A stretch of DNA of 64,000 nt. Origin: Gammaproteobacteria bacterium (lineage in GTDB: Bacteria; Pseudomonadota; Gammaproteobacteria; Burkholderiales; Sulfuricellaceae). The stretch lies in NCBI GenBank assembly GCA_018823025.1, contig JAHJJI010000115.1, positions 1,833-65,832 of the forward strand. The letters run 5' to 3'. Of the stretch, positions 4,701 through 54,152 are shown piece after piece (within the stretch, counting starts at the first letter, position 1; every line of letters begins with the position of its first letter). The position numbers and the translations under genes were made by a program. Below the pieces are notes generated by a model. It was given only the letters and a program-made list of their open reading frames with translations, had not been told where the DNA came from and did no database searches.

Positions 4701-4718
4701 CACTAAAAAGGAGTCAAC

Positions 4719-7496: not shown

Positions 7497-7504
7497 AAAC
7501 CAGA

Positions 7505-27798: not shown

Positions 27799-29388
27799 CT
27801 ACCGTTCCTGCCAGTAGCGATGTCTCTCCTGGCGCCAGGTTTGCAGCTTGACGCCCCCTTCGCTCTCAAAGCGCAGCAGCACCGCACCATCTTGGTCCGA
27901 ACGGTACAACCGGCTACCCAACACCCGGTAGCGTTCCACCACTTCCGGCTTGGGATGACCAAATTGGTTGCGATATCCCGCAGTAAAAATCACGATGGAC
28001 GGATTAACCTGGCGAATGAACGCCTCGGTGGAAGAACTCTTGCTGCCGTGATGCGGCGCCACCAAAAGCGTGGCGGCCAGGGCAGCGGGGGTACGCGCAA
28101 GGATTTCCGTTTCCGACTCGCGCTCGATGTCAGCAGGCAACAGCACACTGCCGTAGGCCGAGGTGATTTTCAGCGTACAGCCGCGGGCATTCTTTCTGAG
28201 TCGCTCGTCGGCGTAACTTTCCCAGCCTGGATGGAGCATTTCAAAACGCACCCCATCCCATTCCCAGGATTGGCCGGCGAAGCAGGGCAGCGACTTTCGA
28301 GCGTGGGACAAGATAGGGCTATCTGCGGGTAATGATGAAGCCAGCCAGCCGACCGGAACCGCATCCAGCACCGAAACCGCCCCGCCGCTGTGGTCGCTGT
28401 CGTCATGGGTCACGATCAGCCCGTCGAGCCGTTTGATGCCGGCAGCGCGCAGGTAAGGCACCACGATGCGGCTGCCGCTGTCGGCATCGGCGGTGTAGCG
28501 CGGGCCGGTATCGTAAAGCAGGGCGTAGTTTTGGGTCTGCACCACCACCGCCAGCCCCTGCCCGACATCCAGCACGCTAAGCCACAAGGCACCCTGCGCG
28601 GGCTGCGGCGGCAACACCAGGAACAATGGCACGAATCCCGCCGCACCCAGCCAGCGCGCCGGAAATCCACGCGGCAACAGCAGCCAGAGAATGCCCAGCG
28701 CCGCTGCCAGCGCCGTCCACAGCGGCGGCGCGTGCTGCTGCCACACCGCATCCGGCAGCTGGCTCAGCCATTCCAGCGCGGCCATGCACCAAGCCATTAC
28801 CTGATGCGCCAGCAGCAGCGGGAAATCGAGCGGCAGAATCGCTCCCGCCAAGGTCAGCGGCACCACCACCAGGCTGATGACCGGGATAGCGAAAGCATTG
28901 GCCAGCGGTGAAACGATAGACACCTGCTGGAACATCAGCAGCAAAGCCGGGACCAGACCGAGCGTCACGGCCCACTGTACATTGGCCCATTCGCGCAACC
29001 AGTGCGGCCTGCCGAGGCGTCCGACGCCAACATAAAGAATCACCGCCACCGCGCCGAAGGACAGCCAGAAACCCGGCGACAACACCGCCCACGGATCTAT
29101 CAGCAGCACCACCAGAACGGCCAGCGCCAGCACCGACGAAGCCGAGCTGGCGCGCCCCATCCACAATGCGGCTGCCACCACAGAAAGCATGTACAGGGTA
29201 CGCTGGGTCGGCACGCCGAAACCCGACAGCAGCGCGTAGAGCAAGGCCGCCAAGGCACCAGCCACGGCCGCCGCCTTGCGTGCCGGCAGGCGCAGGGTGA
29301 GCCTCTGGCTGCGCCGCCACAGGCCATAGACCAATGCAAAGGCCAGGCTGGAGATCAAGGTAACGTGCAGTCCGGAGATGCTGCTTAG
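27799..29388 (-). pseudogene. comEC: comEC/rec2 (DNA internalisation competence protein), N-terminal ~1/3 missing
   Basis: The frame is open up to 29388 and begins right at the conserved ISGLHV motif. Only the membrane 'competence' domain and the metallo-beta-lactamase domain (VTHDDSDHSGG) remain, with no N-terminal region. AT-rich foreign DNA starts at 29389. Confidence 0.8.
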
Positions 29389-29590
29389 TTATCTATTAAA
29401 ACGTAAAACTGGTAGAGATGTTCTTGAAGTGCTGGAAAATAACGTTTTAATAGATATTAGATCGACACCAGATATTCTGAATTCTTAATCAGAGGACTGC
29501 ACACAATTTTAATATGGTGGTTAACACGACACGTAAAAATTACGTTTTAATAGATATTAGATCGAGATTAGATATCTATTAAAACGTTAA
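29389..29590. repeat. Cluster of four copies of a 14-16 bp motif (acgttttaatagat) at the island boundary
   Basis: Copies lie at 29391-29404 (reverse), 29442-29455 (forward), 29542-29555 (forward) and 29574-29587 (reverse). Copies 2 and 3 extend to acgttttaatagatattagatcga. Copies 3 and 4 form a 16-bp-arm palindrome. Confidence 0.8.
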
Positions 29591-29623
29591 TATTAATCGC
29601 GTATTACTGGGCATCTAATTGGA

Positions 29624-29896: not shown

Positions 29897-30045
29897 GATT
29901 ATGCTCCGAAATAGATGGCCGAAATGGCACGTCATCTTCCGGTGGACAACCTCTGCTAGAGCACATGAATATTTTTACCCCAGCCTGTTGTCCTCATTAG
30001 GGTTTGGTTGGATGGTGGCCCTGCGGTTAAGAAAAAGGGTCACAA

Positions 30046-35286: not shown

Positions 35287-35982
35287 ATGAAAAATAAGAA
35301 TGGAATGACAGTTTTAATAGCCAGCATCGCAATCATGTTGGGTGTTGTTGGTTGTGGTAAGAAGGAAAATCAACAAACAACCGTTCCAAGCACTTCAGTG
35401 GCTAAAGATTCCAACTTACCAGTAGCGGCTAAAGATTCCAGCCTACCAGTTTATAGCAGTAAGCGGGAAGTAATCCCCCCTGAAGAATATCAGGATTTCT
35501 TTAAAGGATTATTCATCAATGATCCCGATGGGGCGAAGAGGCAAGGTTACATCTGCTATAGCGCACAAGAACCGGGGATCAGGCGTTGGATGGATTTCAA
35601 CCCATCTTATAACATAGATAAAGGCATGAACTTAATGGAATTTTTCAAGGATGCAGACCCTTCTAATTCCCTGTCTAAGCCTATCACCCACAGTGGAAAT
35701 TGGTCTCTGAAAAACGGATTGCTGGAGACGAAATTAGTTAAAGAGACGAAGACAACAACTGGCTTGTACAGTCAAACATACCACAACAAAATTAACCTCT
35801 CCATTAATTGGGAAATATTGAAGTTAACCCCGAATTCATTAGTTATGGCAGCGAAATTAGAAGGTGGGACTGTTTACAGGCAGTGTAATCTAGTCGGTGC
35901 ACAATATAGCTATTCGTTTGTAAATGATGGATATATGGAAAAAAAATCGGAGCAGATTGTTTGGCCGGCTATTCCTAAATAA
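35287..35982 (+). CDS. Lipoprotein, unknown function (cassette 1)
   Basis: MKNKNGMTVLIASIAIMLGVVGCGKKE, a lipobox shared with the two following genes. Confidence 0.65.
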   Translation: MKNKNGMTVLIASIAIMLGVVGCGKKENQQTTVPSTSVAKDSNLPVAAKDSSLPVYSSKREVIPPEEYQDFFKGLFINDPDGAKRQGYICYSAQEPGIRRWMDFNPSYNIDKGMNLMEFFKDADPSNSLSKPITHSGNWSLKNGLLETKLVKETKTTTGLYSQTYHNKINLSINWEILKLTPNSLVMAAKLEGGTVYRQCNLVGAQYSYSFVNDGYMEKKSEQIVWPAIPK

Positions 35983-36244
35983 CAACCATTGGTTTCCATC
36001 GACAAGAAATTGAGATTCAAAACCACGGTGGATGTAGGCTTTAATCCCGGCAGGTCTGGCAATGACGCTATCATTACCCGCCCCCTCTAGATCAATCAGG
36101 TCTTGGGAAAATCCTTGCCAACATTTCAATATCCATTTGTATTAAAGAAGATAACAGGCTGACTTAGCAGGGTCGACATATCCAAGTCAGTATTTAAATA
36201 TTGGCGGCCAGATTCTGTAGACCTAAGTCAAGGGGGAGTAACAA

Positions 36245-37897: not shown

Positions 37898-37968
37898 TAG
37901 CTAGATGTTTATTTTGGTATGTAAAAATGACTGTGGCCCTCAAGAACGCTCCCAAGGAGAAGTGACGA

Positions 37969-39198: not shown

Positions 39199-39773
39199 CA
39201 ATTTACGCTCCAGTTGCCCACGTCTGCCAAGTTGGGGGCGGCTTGAGTGGCGCAGTGACACAGGTATTTATCCCAATGACCTGCTGGGGCTGGTTCTATG
39301 CCAGTCAATAATCGTTGCCATCACAGCATGATTGAATGACAGTCTATTCATAACTCCAAGACTGTTTGCCAGCATTGTGTGGGTCAATAAACTGACAAAG
39401 CTGGAACCCATTCGAGGACGCTCATCGGCGTCCTCTTCTTTTACACCCGGTAAGACCTCCACCACAAGCTGTATGGGTTTATGACGTACCTCAAAGTCGC
39501 CACGGAAACCAAGCGGTTAATTGCCAGGATTTGAAACTGGGCTAGTTTCTGTGTCAGGTCGTTGAGAATTACAGCGATGGCGAGTCGCCAAAAAATCATA
39601 CTGTATTTTTCCTATTAACAATCACTTGATTTCTAATCCGTATTACTATTGCATATGGCCTTGGTGCGCAACCAGATCAGACATGGCGCAAGAGAAACTT
39701 CACAACAAAATCTACCACTATTTTCGGATAGCGGTTCCTGAATATTATGTGATTTATTAACGTTTAATTTCAA

Positions 39774-41486
39774 ATGAAGCTAAAAACTATCCGCATCGAA
39801 AAATTCCGCGCGATTCGTTCATCGGAGATCCGCGTTAATTCTGAACTCGCCTTGGTGGGCCAGAACAGTGCTGGTAAATCTTCTGTGCTTCGAGCCTTAA
39901 ATGCATTCTTCAACTTCAATGATGAGAAGGAGGCATTTGATCTTGGCAGGCACAACTTCCAAAAAACATCCACTGCTGAGATTGACCTCAGCTTTGTGGA
40001 AACTCCTGTGGCGTGCACAATAGCTCGAGTAACAATTGGTGGAGATGAGGTTCGTGTACGACTTCGATTCAAACGTACTGATTCTTGGCAGGTTTACACT
40101 AACGGAATTTGGGCGTCTGTTGCTTCTGATTTTCACACTGAATTACGCAAATTTATCAGCTACGTTTACGTGCCACTACGCCGGGATCATGAGATATCTG
40201 GGTGGGGTGATCACGGACTTTTGCAGACAGCCGTTGAGGCTTGGGTCAAGCACCACACGAGTAGGCGGGATAGCATAAGCCCTAGAGTTGCGGAGCTCGG
40301 ACAAATGATCCAGCGAAGGGCTTTTGATGGCTTGAGTAAGCAGCTAAGAAAGGTTACTCCAATCAATGGAGCCTTCACATTCAACCTAGAGTACACGCGC
40401 CCTCCTGACTATAGCTTGCTTCTTAGGGATCTTATTCTTCGTGTTACAGAGGGAACCACCACAGTAGACCTTCAAGACTGTGGTAGTGGAACACAGAGCA
40501 TGACTGCATTTGCGCTCTACTCTTACCTTGCCGAGTTGGAAGGCAATACTTATATCTTGGGTATTGAAGAGCCCGAACAAAACCTGCATCCTCAAGCACA
40601 ACGCGAACTGCTAGCAAACCTTCGTGCGCTCCCATTGCAGGTGCTATTTACAACACATTCGACAGTAATACTCGATGATTTACGCCACGATGAAGTTGTC
40701 TTGTGTCGTCGCGTCAAATCTGCCACACGAGGTATTGAGGTTACAACCACCCAGTTAGCCGCAACATTTTGGTCCACGTCAGGCCTCAACGAGGAACGCT
40801 ATTATCACTTTTACCGTCGTAGGAATTCGGAATTCTTTTTTTCGAACTTTGTCATCCTAACAGAAAGCCCGATTGATGCTGAGCTAGTGAAAGAACTCCT
40901 GCGTCAAGCAAAGACAGATACAGTTACTCACTCTGTGTCTATTCTCAGCGTCGATGGAGTCCAATCATTGCCATATGCATATCATCTCCTACGTGCACTC
41001 GATTTAGATTTCGCAACCGTCGTTGATAAGGACTATTTCATGCCGTATCTACACGATGAGCTAGAAACTAGCAGAGATGCGCGAGGATTTCCCCGTTACC
41101 GCAAGGAGTTTAACAAAGGGACATTGCTGGAGAACATGCTGCCAAGCACTGCTGAACGGGCAACGCTGTTGAACCTCTTCCACGGCAACCATTCTCGAGC
41201 AATGGACATTCTAGAAAAATTCAATGTGTTTTGTTTTAAGTGGTCACTAGAAATCGACCTGGTTAACTCAACCACAGCTCGCCAGCTGCTGTTTCAAGGG
41301 CTAAATATTGCCGGTGGAGACCAAACAACAAATACTTTGTTGGTCACCCGGAAAAAGGCGCTTAAAAAACTTGAGACCCTTCTTCCGGTTGTCCAAGGAG
41401 TTCAGCCATCAAACCTCCCTAACTCTTACAAGAGACTGAGGAGAACCCTGCCTGACCTCATTAAAAAAACTGGTTTTTTACACTAA
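39774..41486 (+). CDS. OLD-family ATP-dependent endonuclease (ABC-type ATPase + Toprim)
   Basis: Walker A GQNSAGKSS, signature-like GSGTQS, Walker B ILGIEEPEQNLHP. The C-terminal Toprim-like region has ILTESPID...SVDGVQS...VVDKD. Confidence 0.75.
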   Translation: MKLKTIRIEKFRAIRSSEIRVNSELALVGQNSAGKSSVLRALNAFFNFNDEKEAFDLGRHNFQKTSTAEIDLSFVETPVACTIARVTIGGDEVRVRLRFKRTDSWQVYTNGIWASVASDFHTELRKFISYVYVPLRRDHEISGWGDHGLLQTAVEAWVKHHTSRRDSISPRVAELGQMIQRRAFDGLSKQLRKVTPINGAFTFNLEYTRPPDYSLLLRDLILRVTEGTTTVDLQDCGSGTQSMTAFALYSYLAELEGNTYILGIEEPEQNLHPQAQRELLANLRALPLQVLFTTHSTVILDDLRHDEVVLCRRVKSATRGIEVTTTQLAATFWSTSGLNEERYYHFYRRRNSEFFFSNFVILTESPIDAELVKELLRQAKTDTVTHSVSILSVDGVQSLPYAYHLLRALDLDFATVVDKDYFMPYLHDELETSRDARGFPRYRKEFNKGTLLENMLPSTAERATLLNLFHGNHSRAMDILEKFNVFCFKWSLEIDLVNSTTARQLLFQGLNIAGGDQTTNTLLVTRKKALKKLETLLPVVQGVQPSNLPNSYKRLRRTLPDLIKKTGFLH

Positions 41487-41493: not shown

Positions 41494-41775
41494 AGACAAG
41501 AGACCTGTTAGACAGTAGTCCTAGCAAGCCTACAGCTTGCAGCTATCTATAAAAAGTCAAATCCGACGACTTATACCCAAGCGGAGCTGAGTAAAGCAAA
41601 CAGATTTTCCAGCATATCCACAATCCAACAATTTCAGGAACAGGTCAACGCCAACATATCGATCAGTTTTATCCTCTTGGCACCCTACCCCGTTGCCCAG
41701 TGCTCAAATTGGCTGGATAGACCTAATAATGGAAAAATCTTTACCTGGTGAATCGCCGAGGCAGTACATATATCT
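41494..41775 (+). repeat. Island junction repeat, copy A (~280 bp, non-coding)
   Basis: Aligns by eye with 50125-50400 and 53762-54007. Shared blocks: ttccagcat..ccacaatccaaca, aacaggtcaac, ccctaccccgttgcc, ggatag...ataatgg. Confidence 0.8.
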
Positions 41776-41991
41776 GATGACACTTGCGCGGCAATGGCAG
41801 CGCTTTTGGAAGAGCGACACCAGGCCAAGATGCCGCCACACGAAGCAACATGCACAAGATACAAGCTATCGGGGATCCGGCTACTTAGCAGATGCCTACT
41901 GGCCATCAATATGTATTATTATGGCATATTGAAAATTCACATTTTTGAGCTCCTCCACTACATTCACTCTTGTTTCTGATCGCCACCACTT

Positions 41992-44694
41992 ATGAACATT
42001 GCCGAGATTGAATCGTCGCTCAAAAACCTGGGTGAAACACCATTTGATGCCGACACCTTCATTTATCGTTTTTTAGATATTTACGATGCCCCAAAAGCAA
42101 CAGTAACCAAGCTTCGCCAAGGCACAACGAATCAAACCAAGGAACCTGGCGATCTACTCTGGAAAAACAAACTATTTTTCCGCGTTACCGAAAAAGGCCA
42201 GACCGCCACAGCGGTTGACACCATGTTGGCCGATCCACTGACTAAGAAATACACCCCCCGTTTTTTATTGGCAACTGATGGTGAGGAAGTTTATTGCCGG
42301 GACATCAAGACTGACCAAACGCAGGACTCCCGCTTTGACAGACTGAACGATATTTTTGATTTTTTCCTCCCTCTCGCCGGGATTGAGCGCTATGAGGGAG
42401 TAGCGGAAAACCCCGCAGATATCAAAGCGACTGCTCGACTCGCCAAACTCTACGATGCCATTCTGGAAGCCAACCCGGAATGGGTGGGAAATGACCACAC
42501 CCACGAACTCAACATTTTCATGACACGCATGCTGTTCTGCTTTTTTGCGGAAGATACGTCAATATTTGAAAAGGACTTGTTCACCACAACTTTAATGACG
42601 TTGACCCGAGAGGATGGTACCGACACATCCTCTGTTTTGGAAACCGTCTTTGCGGCCATGAACACGTCAGACAAAGGGCGTGAAGGTTTGCCGGAGTTCG
42701 CCAGACGTTTCCCGTTCGTCAATGGCGGTTTGTTTCATGACAAGACTCCAATCCCGAAATTTTCCAAGCGCGCACGGCGGTTATTGAAAGAGTGCGGCGA
42801 ATTGCATTGGAAAGATATTAACCCGGATATTTTCGGCTCAATGATTCAAGCCGTGGTCGAGCCAGGTATGCGCGGCGATATGGGTATGCACTATACGTCC
42901 GTGCCCAACATCATGAAGGTATTGCAGCCGTTATTCCTGATGTCGTTGGAAGACGAGTTTGAATCTGCCCGTGATAGTGAAGCCAAGCTGCAGAAGCTAT
43001 TGCAACGCATCTATAACATCCGTGTATTCGACCCTGCCTGCGGATCCGGCAATTTCCTCATCATTGCCTATCGGGAACTACGCAAGATTGAGTCCCGGAT
43101 CTTTGCACGCCAAAAGGAAATTGCTAGGCAATGGTTGCTACCGATGACAGGAGTGCGACTCACCCAGTTTTTTGGGATCGAGCTTGCCGACTTCGCTGTG
43201 GAAACCGCGAAACTTTCACTGTGGATCGCCGAATATCAAATGAACGAGCAGTTCAAGGCTCAGTTTGGTACAGCCCCACCAGCACTGCCACTTCGTGATA
43301 GCGGAAATATCGTGCATGGGAATGCCACCCGATTGGATTGGTTGGAGGTCTGCCCACACATAGAGGGCGGCGAGACCTATATCGTGGGTAATCCGCCATA
43401 TTTAGGCGGTAAAAAACTCAGCAGTGGCCAATCAGAAGACATGGATGTTGCCGGTCTAGCAAAGATGAAGCAACTAGACTATATAGGTTGTTGGTTTGTA
43501 AAAGCGGCAAACCACATTGCTGAATCAGACTCTGAGTTTGCATTTGTGACCACCAGTTCTGTGTGCCAAGGCGAGCAAGTTCACTTGCTTTGGTCATATA
43601 TTTTCAAGAAAAATTTAGAAATTAGTTTTGCCCATGAACCATTCGCTTGGTCAAACAATGCCAAGAATAATGCAGGTGTTTTTTGCGTAATCGTAGGAGT
43701 TAAACAGATTGGCAAAAAATATCAGAAATGGATTTTCTCTGGAGCGCACGGAAGAAAGGCAAAAAACATAAGTCCATACTTGGTTGAGGGACCTTCTATT
43801 TTTGCAGTCCCTTCCACTAAGGTGTTAACAAGCTTGCCTCCAATGTGCATGGGCAGCAATCCTGTTGATGGTAAGCATCTAATTCTTGATCGCAAAGAAT
43901 ATGAGCAGCTTATTCAATCGCAACCAAATGCTGGAAGTTTTATGAAGAGGTATATGGGCGGGGAGGACTTCCTGAGTGGAAATCACCGTTATTGCATATG
44001 GATTGAGGAAGATGAAGTAAACGACGCTTGTGAAATTCCATTCATAAAGCACCGATTGGAAAGTTGCAAAATATATAGAAAAACTGCTGGTCGAGACGCG
44101 AAGAAATCAGCAGAAAAACCGTATCGATTTTGTTATAAAACACACCAAAATACATCCGCAATAATCTTTCCAAACACAAGTGCCGCAAGTAGAAACTACG
44201 TTCCTGGTGGTTTCACAGACGAAAATACGGTTATCAATAAAGATGCCTTTGCTATCTATGCTCCAGATGCATATGTTCTAGGGTTGCTGACCTCAACCCT
44301 TCATAGAGTATGGTTAGCAGCGGTAGGTGGTCGGCTCGGCATTGGGTACCGATATTCAGTGAAACTCGTCTACAATAATTTCCCGGTTCCCGAACTCTCT
44401 TCTAATCAGAAGCAATCGCTTGAAGACCATACTTGGGCGATCATTAATGCTCGCGAAGCACATCCCGGAAAAACAATGGCCTGGCTGTATGATCCTGCGA
44501 CCATGCCGGCAAACCTCTTGAAGGCTCACCAAGAACTGGATGATTCCCTGGAAGGCATATACATAGGCCGTCCATTCAAGAACGATGTTGAGCGGTTGGA
44601 ACACTTATTCAAACTCTACGCGAACATGATCAAAAAAGTACAAACAGCCAAAGCTACAAAACAACCGAGTTTGATTTCGACAGGAGCTGCTTGA
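41992..44694 (+). CDS. MmeI-family (Type IIL/ISP-like) N6-adenine DNA methyltransferase with target-recognition domain
   Basis: 900 aa. LFCFFAEDTSIFEKDLF, HYTSVPNIMKVLQPLF, FDPACGSGNFLIIAYRELR (motif I) and IVGNPPYLGG (motif IV). Colinear with MmeI along its length as I recall that sequence. Confidence 0.8.
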   Translation: MNIAEIESSLKNLGETPFDADTFIYRFLDIYDAPKATVTKLRQGTTNQTKEPGDLLWKNKLFFRVTEKGQTATAVDTMLADPLTKKYTPRFLLATDGEEVYCRDIKTDQTQDSRFDRLNDIFDFFLPLAGIERYEGVAENPADIKATARLAKLYDAILEANPEWVGNDHTHELNIFMTRMLFCFFAEDTSIFEKDLFTTTLMTLTREDGTDTSSVLETVFAAMNTSDKGREGLPEFARRFPFVNGGLFHDKTPIPKFSKRARRLLKECGELHWKDINPDIFGSMIQAVVEPGMRGDMGMHYTSVPNIMKVLQPLFLMSLEDEFESARDSEAKLQKLLQRIYNIRVFDPACGSGNFLIIAYRELRKIESRIFARQKEIARQWLLPMTGVRLTQFFGIELADFAVETAKLSLWIAEYQMNEQFKAQFGTAPPALPLRDSGNIVHGNATRLDWLEVCPHIEGGETYIVGNPPYLGGKKLSSGQSEDMDVAGLAKMKQLDYIGCWFVKAANHIAESDSEFAFVTTSSVCQGEQVHLLWSYIFKKNLEISFAHEPFAWSNNAKNNAGVFCVIVGVKQIGKKYQKWIFSGAHGRKAKNISPYLVEGPSIFAVPSTKVLTSLPPMCMGSNPVDGKHLILDRKEYEQLIQSQPNAGSFMKRYMGGEDFLSGNHRYCIWIEEDEVNDACEIPFIKHRLESCKIYRKTAGRDAKKSAEKPYRFCYKTHQNTSAIIFPNTSAASRNYVPGGFTDENTVINKDAFAIYAPDAYVLGLLTSTLHRVWLAAVGGRLGIGYRYSVKLVYNNFPVPELSSNQKQSLEDHTWAIINAREAHPGKTMAWLYDPATMPANLLKAHQELDDSLEGIYIGRPFKNDVERLEHLFKLYANMIKKVQTAKATKQPSLISTGAA

Positions 44695-46670
44695 TGGCCG
44701 ATTTTGTCACCGTAAATTATGCCCAGACCGGCGCAAGCCAAAATACCAACCAATACGGCATGCGGGCCATGCAGGCGCGGGCGTTTGATGCACGGAATTC
44801 CCAATATTTACTGGTCAAAGCACCGCCAGCGTCCGGCAAATCACGCGCCCTGATGTTCATCGGTTTGGACAAGCTTGAGAATCAAGGCATCAAAAAAGTG
44901 ATCGTCGCCGTGCCAGAACGATCCATCGGCGCATCATTCAAGTCCACCAAGTTAGGCGATGGAGGATTTTTTAGTGACTGGGTGGTTAATCCACAATGGA
45001 ACCTTACCGATGCGGGCTGCACGCAAAAGACTAAAGCCTTCGCTGATTTCATGGCTTCCAATGACAGCATTTTAGTCTGTACCCATGCCACGCTCCGTTT
45101 TGCGTTCGATCAACTGGGTGCCGCTGCCTTTGCAAACAGTGTGATCGCCATTGATGAGTTTCATCATGTTTCCGCCGACGAGAACAATCGCCTGGGCGAG
45201 GTGGTTAGAGCTCTTATGGTGGATGGCCGTTCTCACATTGTAGCCATGACCGGATCTTACTTTCGTGGCGACACAACCCCAGTGTTGCGCCCCGAGGACG
45301 AGGCACGCTTTACCCGTGTCAGCTACACCTATTATGAGCAGCTAAACGGGTATCGTGACCTGAAAACATTGGGTATTGGCTATCATTTTTATCGTGGTCG
45401 CTATGTTGATGCGATCAATGAAATTCTTGACCCCTACCTCAAAACCATTGTTCATATCCCCAGTGTTCGTTCGGCGGAGTCAACAACCGACAAATATACG
45501 GAAGTTGACCGAATTCTCGACCATCTAGGAGAAGTGGTCGGTAAGGACCCAGATACAGGATTCGATCTTGTGCGGCGTGCTGATGGCAAAATCATCAAGG
45601 TAGCCGACCTAGTGGACGACAATCTGGGCCGTGAAAAAGTCATGCTTGCACTACGTGATATAAAAGGGCGGGATGATGTCGATATCATCATTGCCTTGGG
45701 CATGGCTAAGGAAGGGTTCGATTGGATTTGGTGTGAACATGCGCTTACTGTAGGTTATCGAGGTTCTTTAACCGAAATTATCCAGATTATTGGGCGCTCG
45801 ACACGAGATGCACCCGGAAAATCTCACGCACAGTTCACCAATTTAATCGCCGAACCCGATGCAAGTGAAGATCGAGTCACCGATGCCGTCAATAATATGC
45901 TTAAAGCTATTGCGTGCTCGCTTTTGATGGAACAGGTACTAGCCCCTAATTTCAAGTTCAAGACCAGGCTGGATGCGGACGAGTTGGACGGTAGTCGACG
46001 AGAGAGCAACATCGCATACACTGGGGACGATAATATCATTGCAATCCGTGGATTCGCCGAACCCTCCACTGCTCGTACCAGACAGATACTCGAAAGCGAT
46101 TTGAATGACCTTTCAGCGGCGATCTTTCAGGATGAAGCCGTTTTGCGCGCGGCAATGAATCCGGATGAATATGCCCCAGAGGTAGTCAATCAGGTATTTA
46201 TTCCCAAAGTTATAGCTCGACAATATCCTGATCTGACTAGCAACGAAGTTGAAGAGGTACGCCAAGCAGTTGTGGCAAATGGCATTTTTAAGAGCCCAAC
46301 TGTCACTGTCGAACAGCAGGCCGATATTAAGTTTGTTCGGATGGCCGAAAGACTTATTAACATCGATGAAATCAACATTGACTTGATAGACAGCATCAAT
46401 CCCTTCCAACGAGCTTACGAAATTTTGTCCAAGTCAGTTACTGCCGATGTACTTAAAACCATACATGGCGCGATCACCTCCACCAAGATCGCCATGAGTG
46501 AAGAAGAAGCTGTTTCTCTTTACCCACGTATTAAAGCTTTTGTTGCTGAGAAAAAGGTAGAGCCCAGTCTTGTGAGTCCGAATCCGCTGGAACGAAGAAT
46601 GGCTGAGGCGTTAGCCTGGATACGTGAAGCCAAGCGCCGCAAGATGGCAGCCTCACCGCAGGAAGCTTAA
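44694..46670 (+). CDS. SF2 (DEAH-type) helicase
   Basis: Motif I APPASGKS, motif II DEFHH, motif III TGS, motif VI QIIGRSTRD. The start overlaps the methyltransferase stop (TGATG). Confidence 0.8.
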   Translation: MADFVTVNYAQTGASQNTNQYGMRAMQARAFDARNSQYLLVKAPPASGKSRALMFIGLDKLENQGIKKVIVAVPERSIGASFKSTKLGDGGFFSDWVVNPQWNLTDAGCTQKTKAFADFMASNDSILVCTHATLRFAFDQLGAAAFANSVIAIDEFHHVSADENNRLGEVVRALMVDGRSHIVAMTGSYFRGDTTPVLRPEDEARFTRVSYTYYEQLNGYRDLKTLGIGYHFYRGRYVDAINEILDPYLKTIVHIPSVRSAESTTDKYTEVDRILDHLGEVVGKDPDTGFDLVRRADGKIIKVADLVDDNLGREKVMLALRDIKGRDDVDIIIALGMAKEGFDWIWCEHALTVGYRGSLTEIIQIIGRSTRDAPGKSHAQFTNLIAEPDASEDRVTDAVNNMLKAIACSLLMEQVLAPNFKFKTRLDADELDGSRRESNIAYTGDDNIIAIRGFAEPSTARTRQILESDLNDLSAAIFQDEAVLRAAMNPDEYAPEVVNQVFIPKVIARQYPDLTSNEVEEVRQAVVANGIFKSPTVTVEQQADIKFVRMAERLINIDEINIDLIDSINPFQRAYEILSKSVTADVLKTIHGAITSTKIAMSEEEAVSLYPRIKAFVAEKKVEPSLVSPNPLERRMAEALAWIREAKRRKMAASPQEA

Positions 46671-46674
46671 AGCT

Positions 46675-47877
46675 ATGGTGCGCCAAACGCTAGACGATGT
46701 ATTGGCCGAGAATGACGACTTGGGTTTGCTGAATGTAAAACCGCACTCATCCAACTCCAGCACCGACGCAGTTCGCATTCAGCAGGCATTCGAAGAGGTC
46801 AATGTATTTGTTGATCGTCATCATTTCTCCCCCGGCGAAGGACAGAATGGTGAAAAGATTTCAGTAAGCGAGCGCACTCTACAAATGCGCCTTAAAACCT
46901 ATCGGGATCAACCAGACATATCTGCCCTATTGAAAGAAACAGACCGTCATGGTTTGTTAACAAGTCTGACTAAACAACCGCCACCACCGGCCAGTTTGGA
47001 CGACATTCTTGCTTTGGATGACGAACTACTTTCTGACCCAAACGAAGATATTTTTACATTTCGGCATGCTCGCCCAGCAGCAGCCCGTCCAGACAAGATA
47101 TCCGAACGTAAACCATGCCTTGATTTTGAGCAGTTCAAACCGCTATTCGATCAAGCGATTGATGATTTGGCAACAGGCGAACGTAAGAGTATGAAATTTG
47201 CCAATGAACAGGAGATCGAGGCTGGAGGGTTCTTCATTCTGAATGGTGTAATGGTCTATGTTGCCGAGGTAAACGACCCACATATTCGCAATGGAAAGCG
47301 TAATGCCCGACTCAGACTGATTTTTGAAAACGGCACTGAGGGGCAAAATTTGCTTAGGTCTCTGGCGACAGAGCTTTATAAAGACCCCAACGGTCGCCGC
47401 CTTTCTGACCCTAATGCCGGACCACTCTTTGATGCCAGACCTACCACTGCCACAGTAGCCAGTCCGAATGATCGCATCACGGGGTGCATTTATGTTGTAC
47501 GGAGCCTTTCGCCGTCCCCAGAAATTGCCAAACTTGATGGCCATCTTTTTAAAATCGGCTTCACTACAGGCACTTTTGAAGACCGTATTCGCGGAGCAAA
47601 GGATGACCCAACTTTTCTGTTGGCCGCAGTTCATCCCGTCCGAACTTACGATGCGATTAACCTTAATGCCAATAAATTTGAGAGTTTGGTACACCGGTTT
47701 TTCGCCGATGCACGGCTAGACATCGAAATCATGGATCGATTCGGCAAGCCATGTCGGCCAAGAGAATGGTTCCTACTTCCTCTTCCGGTTATTGAGGCGG
47801 CCATTACAATGCTGCTTGATGGTTCTATCTTGCGACATAGGTATGACCTGGTTTCGTGCGCCATTGTCCCTGTGTAG
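46675..47877 (+). CDS. T5orf172 (MUG113/GIY-YIG-like) domain protein
   Basis: ATG lies 4 nt after the helicase stop. The C-terminal domain has CIYVVRS...LFKIGFTTG..EDRI...PREWF, typical of T5orf172. Confidence 0.7.
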   Translation: MVRQTLDDVLAENDDLGLLNVKPHSSNSSTDAVRIQQAFEEVNVFVDRHHFSPGEGQNGEKISVSERTLQMRLKTYRDQPDISALLKETDRHGLLTSLTKQPPPPASLDDILALDDELLSDPNEDIFTFRHARPAAARPDKISERKPCLDFEQFKPLFDQAIDDLATGERKSMKFANEQEIEAGGFFILNGVMVYVAEVNDPHIRNGKRNARLRLIFENGTEGQNLLRSLATELYKDPNGRRLSDPNAGPLFDARPTTATVASPNDRITGCIYVVRSLSPSPEIAKLDGHLFKIGFTTGTFEDRIRGAKDDPTFLLAAVHPVRTYDAINLNANKFESLVHRFFADARLDIEIMDRFGKPCRPREWFLLPLPVIEAAITMLLDGSILRHRYDLVSCAIVPV

Positions 47878-47951
47878 CCAGCGGCGTAAGAATCGCACCC
47901 GAATTTAGTAAATACCATCAAACCTAAAGCCATCAAAAGTAGACGGTAGCC

Positions 47952-48239
47952 TTACAATCCTTTGAACCAGTATTGGCGCATTTTCGCCAAGAAATATCTC
48001 GAAATGGGGAACCCTGATTTATCACCAATAACAGAATCAATTCCGCAGTGTGGGCAAATAGCAGTAGTTCCCATATCAATCTCTGGGGATCCCAGATCTC
48101 TCACCGGCCCATCAACCCACTGGGTGACCTCCTTTGGATCGAATATAGTGAGACAGCAGAAACATCCACAAATCTGGCTCGACAGTAATTCCTGGCGATG
48201 AGATGTCGAGTGCAGGTGAGCTTTAATGATGTCGGGCAT
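47952..48239 (-). CDS. Cys-rich small protein (putative zinc ribbon), unknown function
   Basis: CGCFCC...CPHCGIDSVIG pattern. Lies 36 nt downstream of the DUF262 gene on the same strand. Confidence 0.55.
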   Translation of the reverse strand: MPDIIKAHLHSTSHRQELLSSQICGCFCCLTIFDPKEVTQWVDGPVRDLGSPEIDMGTTAICPHCGIDSVIGDKSGFPISRYFLAKMRQYWFKGL

Positions 48240-48275
48240 AACTCTTAGGGACCATCCAATAACTGATCACCCATA

Positions 48276-49991
48276 TCACTCCATGTTCTCGGCTTCAGCT
48301 TCGAGATTTGTTGCTTCAATAATACCTGTAACACGTTTGATCTCTTGCCAAAGTCGAGCCTCACGCCAAGCAAGGAATGCGTCGTAGTCGTCGGTCCAGA
48401 ACGGCGCACTGTCACCTGTAGGTAAGCAATGTGATGAAAGAATAGCGTCAAACGGAAAGCCATCTGTACTGCGGATTACTGATAGATAGTCGGAGGGTGC
48501 ACGATTGCTGATCATTTGATTGGTCGTCCGATCAATCAATGTTCGATTCAGGACGCAGTCTCTAGCACGTGCTAACTTTATGCCCTTCTGTTTCTCCAGG
48601 AAATCAGCAGGGAAAATATGGTGATCATCAATACCCTCTTCACTCATTAGCTTGCCCGTAATAACTGCCTGAGTATGAAAATCCCGTGCACCTGTCTCGT
48701 TTCCAAGGATTAGGCACATGACCCCGCGATAAATCGAACGCTGTCTGGGAGTCACATCTCGTAATGCCTTGGGATCGAAGCGAAGTCCTACAACGGTCTC
48801 GGGTAAAACACCGCCTTCAAACCAAGAAACCAATTCAGCGACATCTTTTGCTGCTTGGCTGTTGGGTGAACTCTCGTAAGCTTGACCAAATACAGCACAC
48901 CAAAACCAGCGCTTGAGTTTCTCTCTTTGAGCGCCAGCCTCGGCAGTTTTCGGCTGACCAGACTTAGCCAGAACAGCCGCCATCGGCGAAAGCATGGTCT
49001 GATAAGGCAACCATTTCGGCAGGACCACCTTGCAATCATCTCTCAGCATATTAAGACTCGCTGTCAGCCCTGCAATAACCTTAGGCCACCATATTTCAAT
49101 GTCAGAAGCCGTGAGATTCAGGACCTCACTACGTTTACATGAAGGAGATTTCCGGCTCGCCAGAGCAATGGCTTGCAAGATGTAATAGGGATCGACCTCG
49201 TAATCAGTGATGATTGGATTTTCTTCTTTAGCCTTATCCCACAGGTCTCGTAGGTTAATTTTTAGTGGCCAGAACCTTGCTGTCAGCAATTCAAAAACAC
49301 TGAGCTTAACGCCCGTTCTATTAAGCGTTTCGAAAATGGTGCACAGAGCATCCGGTTCAGTCTTGTCTGAAAGTGTAACGACGGGGAAGTGGTAGTCATC
49401 AATGACCTGAATCCACTTCTGATCGATATCGTCGAGAGTATCCTCCAAGGCGATACGGTCTTGGTCAGGCAGTTGGCGAGCTACTTTGCGACTCCACTGG
49501 CCGAAACCACCTGCCCCTCCTTTCAGCAAACTCAAAGGAAGGAGAAGTTCTTTCGCTTGAAGTTCAAAGCTCTCCCGAGCCTTTGCCCACTTGGTCGTGG
49601 CACGCACATGAAATATTGCTTCCTCAAAATCAGCACCATGTAGCAGTTTATTTAGATCAAGGTAATAGCGGTGTTCGCCAACGCCGTAGAAAGCCTGATA
49701 GAGCGATGTGAGTCGTTGTTGTCCATCGAGAACTAGAAACGTGTGCGACTTTCCGTCAAGAGCGGGCGCCCCTTCAAATTCTCTGGCAGCAAATACACGT
49801 TGAGCATCACGCACACGTAGGATGCTGCCAGCTGGGTAATTGTTAGCAATGGAAACGATCAATTCCTGCGTAGCACCAGGTTCCCAGACAAAATCACGCT
49901 GAAAGTCAGGCAACACCATCGCCCGAGAGTGAACGTCGCTCAATAAATCTTTTAAAGCGCGGGGGTTTGTGTCTTCAAATAAATTCATCAA
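48276..49991 (-). CDS. GmrSD-like DUF262 + DUF1524/His-Me (HNH) domain protein (Type IV restriction-like)
   Basis: N-terminal LPDFQRDFVWE and LVLDGQQRLTSL (DUF262/ParB-like NTPase). C-terminal IDDHHIFP...NRTLID..TN (His-Me finger). Confidence 0.8.
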   Translation of the reverse strand: MMNLFEDTNPRALKDLLSDVHSRAMVLPDFQRDFVWEPGATQELIVSIANNYPAGSILRVRDAQRVFAAREFEGAPALDGKSHTFLVLDGQQRLTSLYQAFYGVGEHRYYLDLNKLLHGADFEEAIFHVRATTKWAKARESFELQAKELLLPLSLLKGGAGGFGQWSRKVARQLPDQDRIALEDTLDDIDQKWIQVIDDYHFPVVTLSDKTEPDALCTIFETLNRTGVKLSVFELLTARFWPLKINLRDLWDKAKEENPIITDYEVDPYYILQAIALASRKSPSCKRSEVLNLTASDIEIWWPKVIAGLTASLNMLRDDCKVVLPKWLPYQTMLSPMAAVLAKSGQPKTAEAGAQREKLKRWFWCAVFGQAYESSPNSQAAKDVAELVSWFEGGVLPETVVGLRFDPKALRDVTPRQRSIYRGVMCLILGNETGARDFHTQAVITGKLMSEEGIDDHHIFPADFLEKQKGIKLARARDCVLNRTLIDRTTNQMISNRAPSDYLSVIRSTDGFPFDAILSSHCLPTGDSAPFWTDDYDAFLAWREARLWQEIKRVTGIIEATNLEAEAENME

Positions 49992-50124
49992 AACTTCACT
50001 TAGAAAGTTGGAAAAATACAGCGCGGAAGATGGAATGACAATGTCACAGCGTGAAGCAAACCTATTGAAATATCAAGTAGTCAGCTCACACACAGCAAAT
50101 TTAGTGCAACGGATGCTGTTTGAG

Positions 50125-50400
50125 CATGACATGAGACGGTGTAACAGTGCCGTATATACACCCCATCCAACGAACCACACCCGCCCGGAGTTGGCAATAC
50201 AAACAACTTTTCCAGCATGACCACAATCCAACAAATCCGAAAACAGGTCAACATCAACATCTAGACTAGGTTTCGTCTTCCAGGCACCAGGAAAGGTTAA
50301 CAAGGTTCGGCTCCCTACCCCGTTGCCAAGTGGTCTTGTTGGAGGGATAGTCCTGATAATGGCAAAGGCTTTGCCAGACACGTCCGAACAAGAGACGGTC
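50125..50400 (+). repeat. Island junction repeat, copy B
   Basis: Same blocks as copy A, in the same orientation, with an internal ~30-bp insertion (ccaggcaccaggaaaggttaacaaggttcggct). Confidence 0.8.
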
Positions 50401-50477
50401 GAGCTCCTCAACCGAGACTTCAGCCGTTACTATACTTATCGTGTCGTATTTGACTGACTCTGGAGAAACGGTGAGGT

Positions 50478-50693
50478 ATGAACTTTCTGCTTAGTTCTAT
50501 ATTCGCGGAGCGTCTACGTGATGCTGTCAGGTTGGAACCGCTGCTGCCAGACGAGATTCGCCGGATCGTTGGAATGGGTGAGAAATACATCGCGCTCTCA
50601 AACGCAGCGATTGACACTAATGTTTACACCAACATGTTTGAAGTAGAGATTGATGGAGTGAATCACATAATCTACGCCAAAATCTCACCATGA
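50478..50693 (+). CDS. Hypothetical small protein (71 aa)
   Basis: ATG preceded by GGTGAGG. Convergent with the STAND gene. No recognisable domain. Confidence 0.35.
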   Translation: MNFLLSSIFAERLRDAVRLEPLLPDEIRRIVGMGEKYIALSNAAIDTNVYTNMFEVEIDGVNHIIYAKISP

Positions 50694-50832
50694 ATGGTGT
50701 GGAGATCCGATTTGTCCACCGTTTCAGAGGTAGTCCAGTCTAGCGAAACGATAGAGCTTAGTAGCATCAGATCAGCCAGAGTGATCAGAGCTTTCACCAG
50801 CACACTCAAAGGGTTGAAGGCTGGCTGTATGG

Positions 50833-53589
50833 TCAAGAAGCAGCATACCCACTTGGTAAGGCGGATAATTTATTCTGGCTTTCAATCAGGTCTGGATGCT
50901 GGGATTCGAACTTGCGTTCAAAAATGTCCACGGCCTTGCTATAGCACTCCTTTGCGCCTGAAAAATCATTTTTGTCGCGCAGCACGTCTCCAAGTATTAC
51001 TAGGGCATTGGCAATCCATGGATGGTCAGGTGTATGACCCAGCCTCAAATCCTCCAAAGCCCTCCGGGAGTGTTGTTCAGCATCGGAGAGATTCCCCTGT
51101 TGCCGCAGGACGCTGGCCAACCACATGCGACCCCGGGCGGTGCGCCTATTCTGGGGGCCATATTTCAATTCTCGAATTTTTAGGCACTTGCTAATCAGCT
51201 CGGCTGCATCATCAAAATTACCAATATCCAGAAGTAGCAAACCCAGATTTAAGTAGCTGAAGGCGGTACTGGGATGATCTTCACCATACTCATGTACGCG
51301 AATCTCAACCGAACGGAGCAGCATAGGCTCAGCCTCGTCAAAGTTACCTTCACGACGAAGCAGGCTGCCCAGATTCGAGTAACGTAGTGCCAGCTTTGGA
51401 TGATCAGGCGGGTAGTAGCGAAGTGAAGTTTCCAACAGCCGGCGATAGAACTGTTCAGCCTCGTCGTAAAGCCCCATTTTCACTAGAGCAGAACCAAGGT
51501 TGTTCAAAGCCACCTGAACATCCGGATGATCCGGTGGCAAGCTATTCTCTCGATGAGCCAGAATTCGTCGATAAATAACAGCCTCTCCAGCATAGTCTCC
51601 ATATCGTCCTGCTATCAACAAAGCAAGAGTTCCCAGAGTGCGAAACACATCCGAATGTTCGCTTCCCAATAGCCGCTCCCGAATAGACAAGGCTTGGCGA
51701 ATCAACGTTTCGGCCTCAGCGAACTCTCCCCGAGCAGACAATGCAGAACCCAGCAGACTCATATATCTGGCAGAGTTCTTATGGAATTCACCATTAGCTT
51801 CTAAACAGATCGCCAGCGCCCTTCGTCGCATTTTAATGGCGCCGTCGAAATCCGAATGCTCTAAAACGATAACAGAAGCCAGTCCCGACAAGGTTGACGC
51901 CACATCGGGATGATTTTCGCCTAGCAGACGCTCCCTAATGTCCAGAGCTCGCCGGTAGAGAGATTCCGCCTCAGATAGCCGCCTTTGTTTGGAGTAAACC
52001 CTGGCAAGGTTGTGCAGGCTGGTTGCAGCGAGTGGATGCTCCCGTCCGAGCGTCCTCTCACGTAGTTCCAGCTGACGCTCTAGGATCGGTTGAATTGCCA
52101 CATAAGCTGCGGCCTTGCGGAACGGATCAAACCGTTTATCGAGCCAATCGGATTTGGCAAAAGCCTCCGGGTCCGCCTGTTCCAGATGATAGCTTGCCTC
52201 ATCAAGGGCACGGATGGCTGCCAGCGTCACATCAATGAGTGATAACACCTCGGCCCTAGGTTGCCAGAAGGCCGCGACCACCTCATGCATCCGGTGGAAA
52301 AAGGATGGGTCTTCACGTCTCGTGCGCTCAATCAGATAGTCGTGCATCAAAGCATGCATGGTACAACTCCCATCGGGTTGGCATGTGATGAAGCTCTGAC
52401 TCTTTAACTCGTTAAAACTTATTTGATGCACCTCTCCAGGCATGGCTTGGCGAAGGGCGTCGAACAATACCTCGTCAAAAATACGGGTGTGGGCTAGAGC
52501 ACGCAAAGCTGAGGCAAGAGCCGGGCTACAATGGCTGATGAAGCGTTCGATGATCTGTGGATGGTTCCCCCCGAAGTGGTCAACACTCGGCGTCATATCC
52601 TTGTTACGTATAGCTTCATAAACGTCGGCTTCGAGGTCCAAGTAGAAAGGAACGCCTTTGGCAGCAGTAACGATGCGGCTGATGATATCGGGTTCGGCGA
52701 TGGGAATGCCTCTTAAAAACTGATAAGCATCTTCGTCCGACAATTCTCCCATCAAATGTTGATCAAGGAACTCGGCCCAGGATGGATCGATCTCCTCCCA
52801 ACGCAGCCGATCACGACCAAGGACCACTAGAAGCACGCCAGGCATTTCAGCAGCCATGTCCCGTACCCACTTGTCCGCCAGCAAACCACCCCTGCCCTGC
52901 CAGAGCTGTTCATAGGTGTCGAGAAATACCACTAACCGGCGTGGTGAGTCGCTATGTTCCTGATAGTGAAGAATGTCAGAGCCGAGGTACTTGGGGAGCG
53001 ACTCATAAAGCTCTTGAGCCGTCATTTCCTCAATTTCGTTGATCAGGCTGCGCCCTCTCGCCTGGTACCACTGTCTACCCCAGTCTGAAGCTTGCTTTAA
53101 TAAGGCCAAAACTGGAAGGCCAGAGGCAATATTTACTGCCAGATCAGCCAACTCTGCCCAATCAGGGAGATTGCCCCCGAATAGTTCTGGATAGTGATCC
53201 TTTGCTGAAGCGCCAGGGCGCGTTTTCGCGAAATAGCTGAGGAAAGCCCGATTGAAAGCAGGAAACGCTAAACCAGCACGTTCTCCCAAAGCTAGACGGA
53301 TGTACAGCAGTGCTTGTTCTTGCGAGCGCGCCTCGGGGGCGGCAAAGTCCACGTGCGCCCAAGCAATCTTTTTTTCATGTTTTCCAACATCTGCGACGTC
53401 ATTGAGAAACTCCCGGCACAGACGGGTTTTACCGTGCCCTCCAGCACCGTAAATAACAAGTACACGATACTGCGTGGGCGATTGAGGCGTGTAAAGGTTT
53501 TGATGGAATAGGTCGACAATTTCGACCCGGTCTGTGAATTTTTTCTGGGCGATAAAGCTCTTGGGCAAATGAGATGGACGTGGGCACAT
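50833..53589 (-). CDS. STAND NTPase: NB-ARC-like P-loop domain + C-terminal TPR array, no N-terminal effector domain
   Basis: Walker A GAGGHGKT near aa 50, Walker B LVVFLDTYE, then about 10 TPR units of the LA.SLHNLA..Y...G....AE.LY.RAL.IRE type. Confidence 0.75.
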   Translation of the reverse strand: MCPRPSHLPKSFIAQKKFTDRVEIVDLFHQNLYTPQSPTQYRVLVIYGAGGHGKTRLCREFLNDVADVGKHEKKIAWAHVDFAAPEARSQEQALLYIRLALGERAGLAFPAFNRAFLSYFAKTRPGASAKDHYPELFGGNLPDWAELADLAVNIASGLPVLALLKQASDWGRQWYQARGRSLINEIEEMTAQELYESLPKYLGSDILHYQEHSDSPRRLVVFLDTYEQLWQGRGGLLADKWVRDMAAEMPGVLLVVLGRDRLRWEEIDPSWAEFLDQHLMGELSDEDAYQFLRGIPIAEPDIISRIVTAAKGVPFYLDLEADVYEAIRNKDMTPSVDHFGGNHPQIIERFISHCSPALASALRALAHTRIFDEVLFDALRQAMPGEVHQISFNELKSQSFITCQPDGSCTMHALMHDYLIERTRREDPSFFHRMHEVVAAFWQPRAEVLSLIDVTLAAIRALDEASYHLEQADPEAFAKSDWLDKRFDPFRKAAAYVAIQPILERQLELRERTLGREHPLAATSLHNLARVYSKQRRLSEAESLYRRALDIRERLLGENHPDVASTLSGLASVIVLEHSDFDGAIKMRRRALAICLEANGEFHKNSARYMSLLGSALSARGEFAEAETLIRQALSIRERLLGSEHSDVFRTLGTLALLIAGRYGDYAGEAVIYRRILAHRENSLPPDHPDVQVALNNLGSALVKMGLYDEAEQFYRRLLETSLRYYPPDHPKLALRYSNLGSLLRREGNFDEAEPMLLRSVEIRVHEYGEDHPSTAFSYLNLGLLLLDIGNFDDAAELISKCLKIRELKYGPQNRRTARGRMWLASVLRQQGNLSDAEQHSRRALEDLRLGHTPDHPWIANALVILGDVLRDKNDFSGAKECYSKAVDIFERKFESQHPDLIESQNKLSALPSGYAAS

Positions 53590-53761
53590 TGCAAAAGGCT
53601 TCCTTTTATTTCATTGATCAATAATCTTGGCCAAATCTTTGAGCTTTGAAATTAATCACCAGGATCGACTTGCACGTCTCTGTTGCAGGCAGCGAGATTG
53701 TTTACTTGTGTGATCAACTTTCTACTAACAGGTCTTATGCAAACATCACGTAACTGATTCT

Positions 53762-54007
53762 TCCAAACACAAAAGGGTAAGACCACCGTACCTATACCAT
53801 CTAACGACCTACACCCGGGTTGGTGGATCAAACTGATTTCCCAGTATGTCCACGATCCCACAAATCCGAAAACAGGTCAACGCTCAACATATCTATCAGT
53901 TTTATCCACTTGGCACCCTATCCTGTTGCCCAGTACCCATGTTGGATGGATAGTACAGATAATGGAAAAGTTTTTACATGTTGAATCACCGGGGTAGTAC
54001 ACGTAAC
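53762..54007 (+). repeat. Island junction repeat, copy C
   Basis: Closest to copy A (e.g. aaaacaggtcaacgctcaacatatctatcagttttatccacttggcaccctatcctgttgcccagt). Confidence 0.8.
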
Positions 54008-54152
54008 AGTCCATATCCCAGATTTTCATCCATATTTCCGAACCTTCGAATATGCGGCTACTAGCCTAGGTCAGAGCCCAATACTGTTAGTCTAACTTTT
54101 ACCTTTTTACCCTCGTAGCCGTACGATTTTCGCAGGATTCCCAAGCCTGGGA

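Follow-up and report, generated by a model that had tools for sequence, protein, structure and literature searches.

The locus and its repeats

The 64,000-nucleotide stretch analysed here, which we call the window, belongs to a member of the Sulfuricellaceae (contig JAHJJI010000115.1, positions 1,833 to 65,832) and carries an island of defence genes in which a repeat, termed R, occurs three times. The copies R-A, R-B and R-C range from 270 to 310 bp and occupy three intergenic gaps between blocks of defence genes. An initial annotation, made from the letters alone, had proposed three direct, non-coding copies at 41494-41775, 50125-50400 and 53762-54007, and both the envelopes of a hidden Markov model (HMM) and blastn bear this out at nearly the same coordinates:

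41510..41783, + strand: R-A, short form; HMM E 5e-59; between OLD (+) and the type IIG restriction-modification (RM) operon (+)
50114..50423, + strand: R-B, long form; HMM E 2e-80; between GmrSD (-) and a 71-aa open reading frame (ORF) (+)
53758..54029, + strand: R-C, short form; HMM E 1e-67; between STAND-TPR (-) and small genes (-), whose block faces R-C with its 3' end

Every conserved block that the annotation had quoted is present in the copies, and its estimate by eye of 65-85% identity compares with a measured 65-82%. In pairwise blastn searches scaled to the size of the window, R-A and R-C are 81.5% identical over 173 nt (E 7e-43), R-A and R-B 65.6% identical over 212 nt including a 27-nt indel (E 5e-13), and R-B and R-C 76-80% identical in two pieces (E 2e-13 and 4e-9). 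A profile search with a model built from the copies found no fourth copy in the 64-kb window. The proposal that the copies mark module boundaries stands as well. Reading rightward, the order is OLD, R-A, the type IIG RM-helicase-T5orf172 genes with a 95-aa gene and a GmrSD-like gene, then R-B, the 71-aa ORF with the STAND-TPR gene, R-C and finally small genes on the minus strand. These small genes are the actual neighbours on that side, a 142-aa ORF to the right of R-C being probably spurious. Together with X, a non-coding backbone segment described below, the repeats border three cargo slots:

39774..41486, + strand: cargo slot 1 (X to R-A), an OLD/GajA-like nuclease (Pfam, PADLOC)
41992..49991, both strands: cargo slot 2 (R-A to R-B), in which the type IIG RM, helicase and T5orf172 genes on + converge on the 95-aa gene and the GmrSD-like gene on - (Pfam, PADLOC, ORF map)
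50478..53589, both strands: cargo slot 3 (R-B to R-C), in which the 71-aa ORF on + converges on a STAND NTPase-TPR gene on - (Pfam; gene calls on L005)

A promoter-like motif in R, in X and before backbone genes

The most conserved positions of R form a motif, P1, that lies on the plus strand in the right half of every copy and reads cGTTGyCC-N15-tGGATrGT, with the geometry TTGyCC, 17 nt, GATrGT. The same motif stands before two genes of the island backbone, one encoding a tyrosine recombinase (the integrase) and the other a 64-aa protein among the small genes that we call S1, and it recurs in X. The sites in the window are given below with their matrix scores and, where they are kept, the related islands (L007 and the like) that share them:

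29985..30016, + strand: P1 before the 64-aa backbone gene (30046-30240); 23.7 bits, rank 1; kept in L007, L010 and L013
34035..34066, + strand: P1 before the integrase; 23.0 bits, rank 3; same place in L007, L009, L010 and L013
39312..39343, + strand: P1 in X; 19.3 bits, sixth of the window's top six
41690..41721, + strand: P1 in the right arm of R-A, CCGTTGCCC-N15-TGGATAGA; 19.9 bits, rank 5; also found by pattern scan
50320..50351, + strand: P1 in the right arm of R-B; 21.6 bits, rank 4; found by the sigma-70 consensus scan too, as TTGCCA-17-GATAGT
53923..53954, + strand: P1 in the right arm of R-C; 23.5 bits, rank 2

A strict P1 pattern has six matches in the window, all on the plus strand, against 0.11 expected. 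Because this pattern was written after the sites had been seen, we also scored the window with a matrix trained on non-R sites only (before the 64-aa gene, before the integrase and in X), all of them from other loci. The six top scores in the 128 kb of both strands, 19.3-23.7 bits, fall on S1, R-C, the integrase, R-B, R-A and X, in that order, whereas the maxima in ten shuffled windows were 13.9-19.5 bits. At the integrase and the 64-aa gene P1 lies 33-64 nt upstream of the start codon, a placement seen in all the islands examined, and conservation between islands begins exactly at the motif. The initial annotation had considered a shared promoter unlikely; we come to the opposite view, since every R has a high-scoring P1 and the same motif precedes backbone genes and a terminator-ended unit in X.

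That unit belongs to the following segment:

39242..39581, + strand: element X, a non-coding backbone segment comprising P1 and then a unit of ~100 nt (39344-39442)

The unit ends in an intrinsic terminator at 39414-39442, a GC-rich stem-loop followed by a T-run. X is conserved in L007, L009, L010, L013, L014 and L023 and partly in the distant island L019, where the stem has another sequence and its pairing is nonetheless kept, which identifies the stem-loop as a genuine intrinsic terminator. X has no match in Rfam; it looks like a small-RNA gene with P1 at the place of its promoter. Two further relations between X and R were considered and rejected. Homology over their whole length was not found by nhmmer, and local alignment was significant for L009 only; pairing of an X RNA with the leaders of R gave duplex energies no better than those of shuffled sequences. 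In L009, four tandem 33-nt repeats follow X.

A relaxed pattern scan also picked up inverted, P1-like sites in the left arms of R:

41620..41651, - strand: degenerate inverted P1-like site in the left arm of R-A, GTTGACC-N15-TGGATTGT
50223..50254 and 53852..53883, - strand: the equivalent sites in the left arms of R-B and R-C

This left-arm site, with a similar short box after it, is conserved in all 8 copies of R, and it explains the hairpin that folding programs see in the element.

R has a fixed place in a family of comEC-inserted islands

Relatives of the island were reached through the tyrosine recombinase (L007, L009, L010, L013 and L014) and through a large serine recombinase, or LSR (L023). 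The comparison covers seven islands, each seen within 10 kb of an anchor gene. Each of the six related islands holds one R in the same orientation to the recombinase (E 1e-86 to 9e-52 with an 8-copy profile). The backbone runs from the small genes S1 (29559-31041 in the window) through a variable region, the tyrosine recombinase, a second variable region, X, cargo and R to an endonuclease and/or the LSR, and the window shares S1, the integrase, X and R in this order with all six. The cargo is wholly different from island to island and consists mostly of nuclease, helicase, RM or other defence-like genes. In L010, L013, L014 and L023, R lies 1-250 bp past the stop codon that ends the LSR or endonuclease gene. 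R marks the inner edge of this module and also limits the cargo slot between X and R on the right. The four relatives in which the LSR end is visible have a single R each. The window's own LSR end lies past position 64000, and its LSR module is presumed from these relatives. The distant island L019 has an X-like element and no detectable R.

The LSR lies directly beside a fragment of comEC that encodes the N-terminal part (DUF4131) in L010, which is a 4-Mb contig, and likewise in L019 and L023; in the window and L007 the opposite island end abuts the C-terminal part. The island is thus an LSR element inserted in comEC. Since it interrupts this gene, it probably abolishes natural transformation in its hosts, and carriers are probably not naturally transformable. 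The corresponding features of the window are:

27799..29358, - strand: C-terminal part of comEC; TIGR00361 positions 170-663 only
29367..29592, no strand assigned: three LSR attachment (att)-like sites at the left island junction; alignment with the attL of L007 and the right junctions of L010 and L023
34099..35181, + strand: Xer-like tyrosine recombinase of the island backbone; Pfam Phage_integrase; NCBIfam XerA-like, 120 bits

The three att-like sites are an attL-like site at 29367-29408, an attR-like site at 29437-29473 and a full attP-like palindrome at 29540-29592. L007 has a single plain attL, and L010 and L023 have the matching arm beside the LSR. Judged from these alignments, the cluster in the window is probably the trace of a past tandem integration or excision, or of an element that has been deleted almost wholly. 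The LSR att half-site (ACGTTTTAATAGATA) occurs at 29404-29587 and, in L010, L019 and L023, at the junction on the LSR side; its sole other match, at 58761 with 3 mismatches, is a chance one and far from any R. One option raised for the repeats had been attP-like junctions. The att sequence of the island is however a different palindrome of ~50 bp at the comEC junction (29367-29592), its half-site is absent near R, and a profile comparison found no similarity of R to either island end. R is therefore not an attP-type junction of the LSR.

Homologues of the tyrosine recombinase number more than 1000, dozens of them at 80-96% identity, and those of the LSR more than 2000 in metagenomes; the named sources include Dechloromonas, Sulfuriferula, Gallionella and Methylomonas. 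Searches of genome, metagenome and viral collections with strict R patterns returned chance matches (L001, L004) or none, the pattern being too strict for diverged copies, and searches of viral contigs with the integrase and the LSR returned nothing. The small proteins of the backbone match no Pfam family, so no regulator can be named among them. The island family, with X and R, is apparently undescribed, as a targeted literature search found no description of it.

R is a conserved non-coding element

R is a real, conserved and non-coding element with a uniform layout: ~180 bp of conserved sequence, then P1 on the plus strand, then a conserved initial segment of ~50 nt. The ~27 extra nt of R-B near 50280-50306 are the majority state and not an insertion. 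The long form is found in R-B, L009, L010, L013, L014 and L023, and the short form of R-A, R-C and L007 is a deletion between two GG(C/T)ACC repeats.

Variable columns among the three copies lack 3-periodicity (26:22:34, p=0.26), and codon-position counts are also flat across 7-8 copies. In the candidate frame dN/dS is 0.4-0.9, no better than in other frames and hence uninformative. R-B has in-frame stops, and R-C has a frameshift in the frame that is open in R-A. The sole continuous frame of R found no homologue in a protein search and nothing meaningful in Pfam. No gene is called on R in the related contigs, where calls on neighbouring genes overlap the end of R by ~10 nt at most (L009, L023). 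Two coding candidates were rejected. A decayed gene end had been suggested by a plus-strand frame of R-A that is open for 80 codons and by some differences of synonymous appearance; codon-position counts, dN/dS and searches of Pfam and of protein sequences that gave no match lend it no support. A leaderless small ORF starting at ATAATGG was discarded because the downstream lengths and sequences are not conserved.

A structured non-coding RNA and a MITE-like element (miniature inverted-repeat transposable element) were the other options that the initial annotation had put forward; neither a known RNA family nor a MITE is upheld. Rfam 15 has nothing in the window at the gathering score, the best sub-threshold hit on a copy of R reaching 20.7 bits against 56, and folding z-scores are -0.1 to +0.9. 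In a consensus fold the left and right blocks pair into an extended, interrupted hairpin whose tip holds the 27-nt indel, and the minus strand folds better than the plus strand owing to G-U pairs. In the alignment of 8 copies 91% of cells pair, and only one of 500 shuffles reached the observed covariation score, with a structure derived from the same 8 related sequences; by the tool's own caveat, related sequences can beat shuffles without any structure. Single copies fold no better than shuffled sequences (z +0.2 to +0.9 on the minus strand, -0.1 on the plus strand), the 8-copy consensus fold amounts to only -10.8 kcal/mol with most pairs invariant, and in R-B and R-C the minimum-energy fold is a different one from the hairpin. 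As to a MITE, the copies are not dispersed and are confined to one island family, where they keep to a fixed place in the backbone. The symmetry of R is internal and not terminal, no target-site duplication was seen, and R has no similarity to the IS3 of the window. Plasmid blastn gave no match to R.

The copies of R as mosaics

Comparison of the copies indicates that they are mosaics of one another. The core of R-A is 90-95% identical to the R of L007, the closest related island, which is roughly the level of the backbone divergence (89-92%), and R-B and R-C are more distant from it. Along the single R of L007, the left 80 nt are most like R-B, the middle 120 nt like R-A (90-93%) and the right 70 nt with the flank like R-C, which shares an extra right flank of ~60 nt with it. 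The R elements of L009 and L010 are 95% identical around P1 and 53% identical in the left block. The breakpoints in similarity are scattered, as would be expected if variants of the island had repeatedly undergone homologous exchange within R and units of cargo plus R had been added in this lineage. The accretion may have run through integration of a dimer that later suffered a deletion, through unequal exchange or through site-specific capture; seven islands are too few to choose among them. Of the earlier idea that the modules accreted through mobile elements, the general setting thus remains plausible, given the mosaic copies and the extra att-like sites, and the attP-like or integron-like route finds no support.

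R as a candidate promoter and boundary cassette

We favour, with confidence somewhat above even, a model in which R acts as a regulatory cassette that bears a promoter and marks boundaries in a modular defence island inserted in comEC, and in which it was multiplied by the accretion of cargo. In the basic island a single R lies just inside the LSR (or endonuclease-LSR) module, and the cargo slot is bordered by X on the left and by R on the right. On the position and geometry of P1, R would fire rightward, and possibly weakly leftward, into whatever sequence adjoins it. In the basic island the rightward target would be the 3' end of the convergent LSR operon, giving a transcript antisense to that operon; in the window it would be the type IIG RM operon (R-A) and the 71-aa gene (R-B). 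Extra cargo modules, each with its own diverged R, would have been added by recombination between related islands, and R could double as the homology anchor for such exchanges of modules. Downstream of the predicted start in R-A it is 264 nt to the RM operon, in R-B 120 nt to the 71-aa ORF, and in the R of L007 ~355 nt to a 1776-aa helicase gene. Each of the two modules that R bounds in the window is convergent, with plus-strand genes by the left R and minus-strand genes by the right R, and the X-to-R slot of L007 is arranged likewise.

Several observations weigh against this model. P1 of R-C and the P1 of the single R in L009, L010, L013, L014 and L023 face the 3' end of minus-strand genes, and there a simple role in driving the next gene fails. 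The -10-like GATrGT keeps A2 and T6 of the sigma-70 -10 element but matches it at only 3-4 of 6 positions, a poor match, and a generic promoter scan reported R-B alone. The ~180 bp that are conserved upstream of P1 have no explanation in it. The left-arm sites score 13.0-16.4 bits, within the range of chance, and arm-to-arm alignment is not significant in single copies; on these two grounds the arms were rejected as an inverted duplication, and we hold only the right-arm P1 as firm and treat the leftward site as a lead. The sample of seven islands is also small for judging how common arrays with several copies of R are.

Mobile elements are known to have hotspots in which defence systems gather, and the sequences that define or express the slots have rarely been identified. 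The present island family seems widespread, and its slots are marked by X and R, which share one promoter-like motif. If confirmed, X and R could serve as anchors with which to mine metagenomes for new defence genes, as attC has served for integron cassettes, and would be an instance of a transferable control cassette with which an island can express its cargo whatever the source.

Alternative explanations

Direct repeats that bracket modules without an integrase of their own, in an island whose backbone has a highly conserved tyrosine recombinase, raise the question of whether R is instead a recombination site of this Xer-like enzyme. The R-bounded modules would then be cassettes that go in and out through site-specific recombination between direct copies, in an integron-like or cer/res-like manner, and the inverted P1-like arms would be binding sites for the recombinase or an accessory protein. 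Xer sites of the cer type are ~250-280 bp long, act as direct repeats and need an Xer-family recombinase. R is close in length to such accessory-sequence-dependent sites, it is imperfectly palindromic with a centre that tolerates indels, and the assembly contig L002 ends within R-A. We nevertheless regard this explanation as unlikely. Neither R nor a partial R stands beside the recombinase gene, other cargo slots are bordered by S1, the integrase promoter and X and not by R, and relatives with a visible LSR end have one R only. The breakpoints between copies fall at several positions with no single crossover point, and R has no conserved central short inverted core with a 6-8 bp spacer. The recombinase is also no integron integrase: its matches are partial and C-terminal, with 54.5 bits against TIGR02249 (cut-off 265) and 34.3 against PRK15417 (cut-off 435). 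The motifs GGTCAAC and GTTGCCC in R do not fit the RYYYAAC/GTTRRRY hallmarks of attC, and the sequences adjoining them are not complementary. The recombinase and the first R are 6.3 kb apart, and the interval holds three lipoprotein genes as well as X and OLD. The integron-like modularity once suggested for this locus therefore finds no support, as the integrase models failed, no R adjoins the recombinase, the other slot borders differ and each of the four islands with an LSR end has one R at a fixed place. A bolder version, in which the Xer-like recombinase, the P1-type sites and R together make up a new cassette platform inside a serine-recombinase island, where site-specific recombination at R would capture, stack and excise the defence modules and R would supply their promoter too, seems to us rather improbable. 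If true, it would be a second, independently evolved integron-like system specialised for multi-gene anti-phage cargo; R gains high interest only if it proves to be a recombination site.

The conservation of R could also reflect a structured RNA on the minus strand, a long imperfect hairpin downstream of the LSR operon that might act as a processing or stability element in the manner of retroregulation. The left and right blocks do pair with the indel at the apex, G-U pairs favour the minus strand, 1 of 500 shuffles reached the covariation score, and in four islands R directly follows the stop codon of the LSR or endonuclease gene. Set against this, the structure was derived from the very sequences used to test it, folding energies are at the level of shuffles, the consensus energy is as weak as noted above and the hairpin is not the preferred fold of R-B or R-C. 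Rfam has no match, and the pairing blocks coincide with the -35-like and -10-like elements, which would explain their conservation without an RNA. We consider such an RNA quite improbable. It is in our view very improbable that the copies record the tandem integration of entire islands, as attP-type junctions left by the integrase that mobilises them. The extra att-like sites at the left junction indicate that tandem events occurred in this lineage, and the copies of R are as diverged from each other as are different islands. R is however found on the inward side of the LSR gene and not at an island terminus, it is unlike either island end, the LSR att arms are not near it, and no remnants of the backbone (LSR, small genes, integrase or X) stand beside R-B or R-C. 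For the LSR this explanation is already contradicted. To R as a MITE-like, non-autonomous transposable element or as a decayed gene fragment we give hardly any credence. Its internal inverted symmetry and the 80-codon frame of one copy, where some of the substitutions seem synonymous, could be read in this way. Yet R occurs only at its fixed place in the backbone and has no further copy in the window or in sequence flanking the loci, its inverted parts are internal with no target-site duplication seen, and a gene remnant is at odds with the missing codon periodicity, the broken frame in R-B and R-C and the search that found no protein homologue.

Relation to described systems

The nearest described concepts are pipolins and SCCmec composites. 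As in the defence hotspots of P2 and P4 phages, those of SXT/R391 integrative and conjugative elements (ICEs) and bimodular pipolins (PMC11551731), a small conserved core carries slots whose defence systems relatives exchange through recombination at conserved flanks. Here, unlike in those hotspots, the slot borders are the non-coding X and R and not core genes, the border R has been multiplied to give extra slots, and the backbone joins an LSR, an Xer-like recombinase and a small terminator-ended, RNA-like unit. The family also resembles SCCmec-type composites, tandem accretion and cis-mobilisable elements (PMC11470126), in that serine-recombinase islands sit at one gene and hold defence modules separated by repeats. 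The repeats of the SCCmec type are short att sites of the recombinase, whereas here att is another sequence at the comEC junction and R is internal and 270-310 bp long.

With integron arrays (IntI, attI, attC) the island shares a tyrosine recombinase on a fixed platform and direct, imperfectly palindromic, non-coding repeats that part swappable cargo, and the central part of R varies in length like that of attC. However, R is longer than attC (270-310 against 57-141 bp) and has no RYYYAAC/GTTRRRY cores, the recombinase fails the integron models, R bears a promoter-like motif, the modules are multi-gene and in both orientations, and there is usually one R per island. Integron cassettes start at attI by the integrase and are mostly single promoterless ORFs in one orientation, whereas the first R is ~6 kb off. 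The likeness of R to Xer resolution sites of the cer/psi type, in size and direct-repeat layout, is a resemblance only, R being without a recognisable dif-like core.

Further features of the island and its surroundings

Some other features of these loci lie apart from R and X. In L013 (2690-6788, minus strand) the slot left of the recombinase holds a family-B DNA polymerase (DNA_pol_B_2) and a D5/VapE-type primase-helicase, a module reminiscent of pipolins. In the window, three paralogous putative lipoprotein genes (231, 550 and 409 aa) follow right after the integrase at 35267-39198 on the plus strand; they match no Pfam family and share a repeat of ~100 nt, 77-84% identical, that spans the ribosome-binding site and the signal peptide. 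A 54-nt inverted repeat, 81% complementary, lies at 31274-31327 and 35985-36038 and encloses the tyrosine recombinase gene, the first of the lipoprotein genes and two further genes of unknown kind. It was seen in this genome only and not in related islands, and could mark an invertible segment or be a coincidence.

In the right part of the island an IS3-family transposase gene (61097-61930, minus strand) lies in a short stretch of raised GC content (56%, with ~45% for the island), near the NERD-topoisomerase-Zn-ribbon and cold-shock-Excalibur genes. Outside the island, in the host chromosome and unrelated to the island, positions 2720-7590 of the window hold two paralogous genes of ~3 kb with 300-nt repeats at 3541 and 6457 (79% identity), and these are followed at 7502-7590 by a run of CTCAGCACTCAGGACT-type repeats.

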